From Magallana gigas (lineage: Eukaryota), in the NCBI RefSeq assembly GCF_963853765.1, contig NC_088853.1:63674001-63738000 (forward strand): a stretch of DNA of 64,000 nucleotides, written 5' to 3'. Below are positions 36,181 to 36,400 of the stretch, piece by piece. The notes beneath the pieces are model-generated. The model saw only the letters and a program-made list of their open reading frames with translations, was not told where the DNA came from and ran no database searches. Every line of letters starts with the position of its first letter. The stretch's first letter is position 1. Position numbers and translations under genes: made by a program.

Positions 36181-36328
36181 TCCTCGGACGTCTAGTTGGG
36201 AGATCCGCCCGATCTCGATCTCCGCTATGGTCCGGTAGTGCACTCCCCGTTACAGTCATTCCTTATGTGTTTAAACAAGTTCTAGAACGCATACTAATTA
36301 GTTTAAGGTGGTAAAATATAGCTGGCTT

Positions 36329-36400
36329 TTCTAGAAAGTTCTAGAAATCGATGACAGTAATGTACGGATTCTTATGAAGTCATAGTTTTTTATGACGTCA
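36329..36400 (-). promoter_or_regulatory. Perfect 4-unit heat-shock element (36329-36346) and CRE palindrome (36393-36400)
   Basis: TTCtaGAAagTTCtaGAA and TGACGTCA. A TATA-like TATATTTT lies on the minus strand at 36320-36313, and a further GTTCTAGAAC at 36279-36288. Confidence 0.65.

Follow-up and report, generated by a model that had tools for sequence, protein, structure and literature searches.

A predicted four-unit heat-shock element upstream of an H3K9M-like gene in a decayed Maverick of the oyster Magallana gigas

The window considered here, by which the whole analysed stretch of 64 kb is meant, contains the decayed core of a Maverick/Polinton (adintovirus-like) element, at the end of which lies a short cassette of genes and promoter motifs (Table 1). 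The features shared with other elements of this kind are PolB, an RVE integrase, an A32-like ATPase and an adenain-like protease. Terminal inverted repeats of 117 bases, approximately 21 kb apart, were found in a relative and none for the window copy, the ends of which have been overwritten by other repeats. The PolB fragment is truncated to 149 residues that are 80 % identical to the PF03175 protein of a relative, the integrase matches PF00665 below the cut-off (E=4e-4) and carries a chromodomain (PF00385), the ATPase matches PF04665 above the cut-off, and the protease remnant is 52 % identical to a relative's protein with a weak PF00770 match. The split gene, which from its position and size is presumed to encode the capsid protein, in Mavericks a double jelly-roll major capsid protein, showed no sequence identity in Pfam, PDB or Atlas, and its product has 84 matches in the genome (G000), strongly concentrated on contig C1. 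It is interrupted by an 8.4-kb transposon that is not found in the sister copy.

Table 1. Positions of the cassette, of the surrounding element and of comparable features in related loci (window coordinates unless a locus is named)
Feature	Position	Strand	Remarks
Decayed Maverick/Polinton core	12795..33600	+	PolB C-terminal fragment 12795-13244; ATPase 13250-13954; integrase-chromo 19093-19830
Rest of the Maverick core		+	Putative capsid 23253-33071 (split); protease remnant 33097-33600
Transposon inside putative capsid gene	23498..31901	.	8.4 kb; long perfect terminal inverted repeats; transposase-like ORF (PF21787) and PIF1 helicase pieces
Histone-type 3' stem-loop and downstream element	35820..35866	-	Rfam RF00032, 36.1 bits (gathering score 34)
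Mimic ORF remnant	35893..36249	-	Pro/Gln-rich; basic R-run-HPY word; K9M-like tail; internal ATG 36180
QTARMST tail	35923..35943	-	Host H3 QTARKST (from L046) with Met at the K9 position
Break	36249..36251	.	About 270 bases (core promoter and ORF start) gone relative to L003/L005; copy comparison
Break	36278..36279	.	123 bases (with CCAAT box) gone relative to the sister copy; copy comparison
Second heat-shock element, remnant	36279..36288	.	GTTCTAGAAC; clipped by deletion, two units left
Non-consensus TATA-like word TATATTTT	36313..36320	-	9 bases from the heat-shock element; in an 11-base invariant block
Four-unit perfect heat-shock element, predicted HSF1 site	36329..36346	.	Motif reading, shuffles and genome count
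Degenerate second CRE ATGAAGTCAT	36374..36383	.	18 bases from the first CRE; missing from L005
CRE/ATF palindrome TGACGTCA	36393..36400	.	387 bases past the PP1-type motif, the usual position for the gene slot
GADD34/ICP34.5/DP71L-like ORF	36627..37001	-	Frameshifted relative to sister; upstream of CRE and heat-shock element, same strand
Stem-loops of other families	L092:3004, L095:3301, L177:7590, L178:6466, L180:4471, L183:4070, L187:4246 and 4270, L043:4990, L089:3713
Divergent promoter of a related family	L083:4234-4410, L086:470-643		Three heat-shock element arrays, flanked on both sides by TATA words; located upstream of the GADD34-like unit

Read on the minus strand, the cassette is arranged in the order GADD34-like ORF, CRE, heat-shock element (HSE), second HSE, mimic ORF and histone stem-loop. 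The basic word of the mimic ORF is taken to be PY-NLS-like. Among 40 related proteins, the H3-like tail was found in 30, with TARMST exact in 28 of these, while the start and the tail were both present in 20 of the 40; TARMST has been kept even in relatives at 39–46 % identity. As judged from the protein sequences, the conserved Met at the position of the target Lys, in the setting of a histone tail, marks the product as a putative K-to-M mimic of the H3K9M type. The ORF has no match in Pfam, Atlas or PDB, and no relatives were found in viral or metagenome contigs; one member of the family is annotated in M. gigas as the uncharacterized protein K1PCE0. The stem-loop region matches the 3' ends of host histone clusters at 89–96 %. 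A captured host promoter was also considered and rejected, as a DNA search matched just the family copies and the histone 3' end.

The host genome contains four cassette copies, the closest of which (the sister copy, at C1:53.31 Mb) is part of a segmental duplication of 98–99 % identity. This duplication exceeds 50 kb (window 12795-64000 versus G000:C1:53.30-53.35 Mb) and encompasses both the element and its host flank. The segment of approximately 270 bases missing near 36250 is absent from the window and sister copies and present in L003 and L005, and the reading frame of the window copy at this point is shifted relative to that of the sister. The two deletions listed in Table 1 have cost the window copy its start codon and its TATA/Inr-like core. 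Other copies are damaged as well, with an internal stop in L003 and a lost tail in L005. The 123-base break is no assembly error, as the same skip occurs in a contig of run X16, and since this contig comes from another individual, the skip is a real allele. Cassette copies in which the lost segment is present occur in other animals, as seen in an X1 contig that extends from inside the ORF across approximately 266 extra bases to the HSE. The contigs of runs X2 and X3 have loose ends at the deletion junction, and run X6 gave no cover. Copies from other animals are approximately 99 % alike and carry little information on selection. The first two ATGs following TATATTTT in the window copy, at 36292 and 36259, yield 9 and 101 residues without the tail, and only the third, at 36180, reaches it. 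The window copy had initially been regarded as a functioning switch, a view that finds no support in this copy, given the deletion of its start codon and core, the failure of its first two ATGs to reach the tail and the crippled state of the element; on its sequence the copy is broken and likely a relic of the element.

At least three contiguous alternating nGAAn units define an HSF1 site. All five motifs of the initial annotation were re-read at the positions it had given, and its description of four contiguous units was borne out, as the four units are perfect and exceed this minimum. In the window, TTCNNGAANNTTCNNGAA occurs once, with a mean of 0.01 in shuffled sequences and one occurrence in one of 100 shuffles, whereas three-unit arrays do not exceed chance (three matches versus a mean of 1.19). 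The exact word, TTCTAGAANNTTCTAGAA, was found at seven sites in the 564-Mb genome compared with two for a reversed-pattern control; four of the seven are the cassette copies, one adjoins a related GADD34-like ORF and two lack such a link. A looser four-unit pattern has 174 genomic sites versus 85 for the control, many of them derived from one other repeat.

Conservation in sister copies had been proposed as a check, and the HSE proved identical in all four genomic cassette copies; it is also unaltered in the contigs of runs X2, X3 and X16. In the three non-redundant copies (L002, L003 and L005, 87–95 % alike), 18 of 18 HSE bases are the same, and the longest invariant block of their 479-column alignment, at 35 bases, has the HSE inside it. 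With gap runs collapsed, the probability of an invariant run of 35 is P=0.064, a value that replaces the naive column-shuffle estimate of P=0.00065, and that of all 18 HSE columns being invariant is P=0.032. Statistical support for conservation of the HSE sequence is accordingly modest (P 0.03–0.06), the three copies being kin that decayed in place, and the same upstream region includes a further invariant block, of 26 bases, in which no known motif is recognized. The second HSE varies among copies, with three units in L002 and L003, two in the window and none left in L005. The observation with which the analysis began, that of an HSE upstream of an H3-mimic gene, is thus upheld as that of a real and rare element, present in each of the four copies, before a gene with an H3K9M-like tail in an oyster Maverick.

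Host HSP70 loci served as a control, of which 11 out of 59 exon-level matches were examined. Three-perfect-unit arrays lie within 1.5 kb in 8 of these 11 loci and four-unit arrays in none. The longest array met in the analysis is a six-unit perfect HSE upstream of a host ORF (L105:3925-3952). Pattern scans for the 18-base word returned 69 viral contigs and 2 metagenome loci, none of which is cassette-like by blastn or tblastn; the presence of the word in 69 unrelated viral contigs means that it is by itself no proof of HSF use. Three perfect four-unit words lie close together in each of two unrelated viral contigs (L246:1501-1613 and L268:1501-1718), of which one comes from a giant-virus bin.

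The GADD34-like ORF of the sister copy has a weak direct match to PPP1R15B (E=0.06), while a relative, L077, matches DP71L at E=3e-8 and PF10488 at E=0.007, below the cut-off; in viral and metagenome contigs, the GADD34-like query returned one unrelated phage-like locus. In L072-L081, around 1000-1780, the GADD34-like ORF overlaps a conserved ORF of approximately 140–170 residues in another frame, and these loci also contain a zinc-knuckle ORF in the opposite direction. The GADD34-like protein as query yielded 28 matches, and 27 loci were examined, drawn from these matches and from stretches around capsid and weaker hits; they fall into approximately seven identity groups and are not independent. 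In these oyster Mavericks, a gene slot is made up of a GADD34-like ORF, a CRE, a TATA/Inr-like core, a Pro-rich gene and a histone stem-loop. The slot gene of most families is Pro-rich with an end that, from its Cys pattern, we take to be of RING type. The histone stem-loop with its downstream element terminates this Pro-rich RING-type gene in several other Maverick families, one of which has two tandem stem-loops. The core consists in L003 and L005 of TAAATA at 54 bases and an Inr-like TCACTT at 27 bases before the start codon, and TAAATA followed by TCACTT was observed in all five slot promoters examined, from four families. The HSE is located 310 (L005) or 405 bases (L003) before this core and could, at such a distance, serve another gene. 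The word TATATTTT has been kept in all four cassette copies; as a core promoter it is probably to be discounted, since the core common to related families sits in the segment deleted from the window copy.

The CRE TGACGTCA is perfect in two of the four cassette copies and imperfect in the other two. Five CRE words occur in the window compared with 0.42 expected, and CRE pairs spaced 18 bases apart number 365 genome-wide; the word by itself is not special and is common in the host genome. A perfect CRE lies within 900 bases past the PP1-type motif in 20 of the 27 related Maverick loci versus 14 of 232 background tiles, and 16 of these 20 are positioned at 337–430 bases. In this comparison the CRE is a feature of the gene slot in general and no stress element peculiar to the cassette.

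HSEs are distributed differently. Arrays of at least three units were found downstream of the GADD34-like unit in 4 of the 27 loci, all of the K9M-tail family, and upstream of it in 2 of the 27, both of one related family, compared with a background of 3 in 232 tiles. In the remaining 21 of the 27 related loci the surroundings of the slot are free of HSEs, which indicates that control by heat does not extend to these elements as a whole. As the CRE is present in 20 of the 27 loci and a downstream HSE in the K9M-tail family alone, the CRE is the old promoter element of the slot and the HSE a later addition. The K9M-tail family has gained two HSE arrays and has the K9M-like tail where most families have the RING-type gene. 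In the related family, both copies that retain the region (2 of 2) carry three HSE arrays each between divergent TATA words, so that HSEs recur in this lineage. The middle arrays of its two copies, L083 and L086, have decayed differently. A test for homology between the HSE modules of these two families gave no support for it, as they align with scores of 36–40.5 versus shuffle maxima of 51.5–57, whereas the slot cores of the same families do align (58.5 versus 47 for shuffles); the placement of the HSE upstream of the mimic therefore looks separate. The two HSE-bearing families group weakly in an integrase tree (82/81), and the ATPase tree gave no resolution.

Transcription was assessed in three RNA runs (X21, X22 and X24) with unlabelled conditions, two of them poly(A)-selected, approximately 1 in 100 reads of which were mapped to the sister region. 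No sense RNA of the mimic gene was seen in these runs. X22 and X24 gave almost solely host histone reads at the stem-loop and next to nothing over the gene, while X21 gave 1–2x depth across the mimic and GADD34-like genes, with 12 reads at 99 % identity or above. The X21 reads are antisense, since, compared with the host histone reads, every first mate maps to the other strand. Such a result would be expected whether the gene is silent, inducible or dead, and poly(A) selection under-samples stem-loop mRNAs. As for host factors, three PF00447 matches above the cut-off indicate HSF domains, and the host SUV39H is 92 and 90 % identical to the Saccostrea and Ostrea proteins. Two studies describe the activation of HSE-bearing promoters by oyster HSF1 in reporter assays (PMC6688261, PMC7652795). 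The terms K1PCE0, Polinton and Maverick have no entry in 11 supplement files of an oyster HSF1-RNAi heat study (PMC6688261), the expression table of which may still bear on the gene.

The explanation that we consider probable, if narrowly, is that the HSE, to judge from its sequence and setting, is a true HSF1 site that would have made the mimic gene heat-inducible in the ancestral element, the window copy being broken and likely a relic. In that ancestral element, HSF1 would bind the HSE on heat stress, while CREB/ATF at the CRE may provide a basal or stress input. The mimic mRNA would be produced in a non-polyadenylated form by histone-type processing, and the protein would presumably enter the nucleus, where its tail could trap SUV39H/G9a-type methyltransferases as H3K9M does; trapping of Clr4/G9a by H3K9M has been described (PMC5030085). 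The H3K9 silencing of the element would then fall, and the GADD34-like protein would meanwhile keep translation on. A bolder and doubtful extension, offered tentatively, is that a Maverick lineage swapped its RING-type immediate-early gene for a secreted-into-chromatin K9M decoy under host HSF1, with a histone-type 3' end. The result would be a heat-triggered oncohistone switch that lifts H3K9 silencing in intertidal heat stress, of which uninterrupted alleles would still be segregating in oyster populations.

One possible alternative is that the HSE is a real HSF1 site acting as a two-way enhancer, mainly for the GADD34-like gene or for an antisense RNA and not specifically for the mimic. HSEs work in either orientation, the arrays of the related family lie upstream of the GADD34-like unit and outside the slot, and the few X21 reads are antisense over both genes, all of which would accord with such a role. 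However, the HSE of the cassette is located 3' of the GADD34-like ORF but 5' of both the CCAAT box and the core promoter of the mimic, and between the two families an alignment better than shuffles was obtained for the slot cores and not for the HSE regions, so that we regard an enhancer of this kind as unlikely.

Ranking after it is the quite improbable proposal that the TTCTAGAA repeat is an incidental palindrome, or the site of another factor, kept by descent, with the CRE and core driving the gene as in its RING-type counterparts and heat playing no role. The modest P values for conservation (0.03–0.06) are compatible with this, as are the motif-less 26-base invariant block in the same region, the 174 four-unit words genome-wide, many of them in repeats, and the occurrence of the HSE word in unrelated viral contigs. 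On the other hand, there are two arrays here and three per copy in the related family, each near TATA-like words, compared with 3 of 232 background tiles, and five of the seven exact genomic words lie inside these elements. That the window copy itself works, producing a shortened mimic of 95 residues from the ATG at 36180 under the control of the HSE and TATATTTT, is very improbable: TATATTTT does lie 9 bases from the HSE and persists in all four copies, the 95-residue frame does retain the basic word and the tail, the stem-loop is intact and the 123-base skip recurs in another individual, but two ATGs ahead of 36180 miss the tail, the start codon has been lost to deletion together with the shared core, the element around the cassette is crippled (split capsid, PolB fragment) and the three RNA runs contain no sense reads.

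If the HSE is indeed an HSF1 site serving the mimic gene, the closest known parallels are heat-responsive mobile elements. ONSEN of Arabidopsis is likewise a mobile element with an acquired heat-responsive element, and it uses a host heat-shock factor to escape silencing (PMC3907296). It is, however, an LTR retrotransposon in which the HSE drives the whole element, as demonstrated experimentally, whereas the oyster element is a DNA virus-like Maverick in which the predicted HSF1 site stands before a single accessory gene that encodes a putative histone-tail mimic. Caenorhabditis Helitrons also carry HSEs inside an animal DNA transposon, and these bind HSF-1 even in H3K9me3-rich chromatin; in contrast to the four oyster copies, with the HSE before the element's own gene, they form high-copy arrays that rewire neighbouring host genes (PMC6927752). 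The cassette would work like the HSEs of ONSEN and Helitrons but belongs to neither.

Viral promoters or programmes tied to HSF1 have also been described for HIV-1 and HCMV (PMC9367301; bioRxiv 10.1101/2024.09.23.614483), which are unrelated viruses for which the available text of these reports does not name a K-to-M mimic or a histone-type 3' end. With regard to the tail, the target Lys of a histone-tail sequence is replaced by Met in the H3K9M oncohistone and EZHIP, which inhibit SET-domain methyltransferases (PMC5030085, PMC6513997). EZHIP is a natural K27M mimic encoded by a mammalian host gene (PMC6513997), while the oyster word is of the K9 type, at the C-terminus of an element-encoded protein and a putative inhibitor. 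A term search of the main text of a virome-wide mimic survey found no mention of K9M or Polinton (PMC11738798). A literature search, with most subscription journals outside its scope, turned up no Maverick described as carrying an HSE, a K9M mimic or a histone stem-loop. Nor did this search yield an accessory slot like that of the oyster element, with a GADD34-like gene, a CRE, a histone stem-loop and an HSE-led K9M-like gene.

Heat-responsive mobile elements such as ONSEN and Helitrons are known. Should the HSE work, it would offer an answer to the question of how integrated Mavericks become active in animals, and one cassette would combine HSF1 as the trigger, a K9M-like decoy of H3K9 methyltransferases as the effector and the GADD34-like gene as the helper, each of which the oyster HSF1 tools already in use would allow to be tested. 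As a natural K9M mimic, the protein would be to H3K9 what EZHIP is to K27, and heat-driven loss of H3K9 methylation could affect how stable the genome remains in an oyster that is farmed and subject to summer mortality. A separate observation concerns the surroundings of related Mavericks, in which a repeat of approximately 215 bases with two CREs 18 bases apart (L091:9076-9289 and L083:3302-3509) abuts the left end of one element and lies near the left side of another, possibly reflecting a target-site preference.
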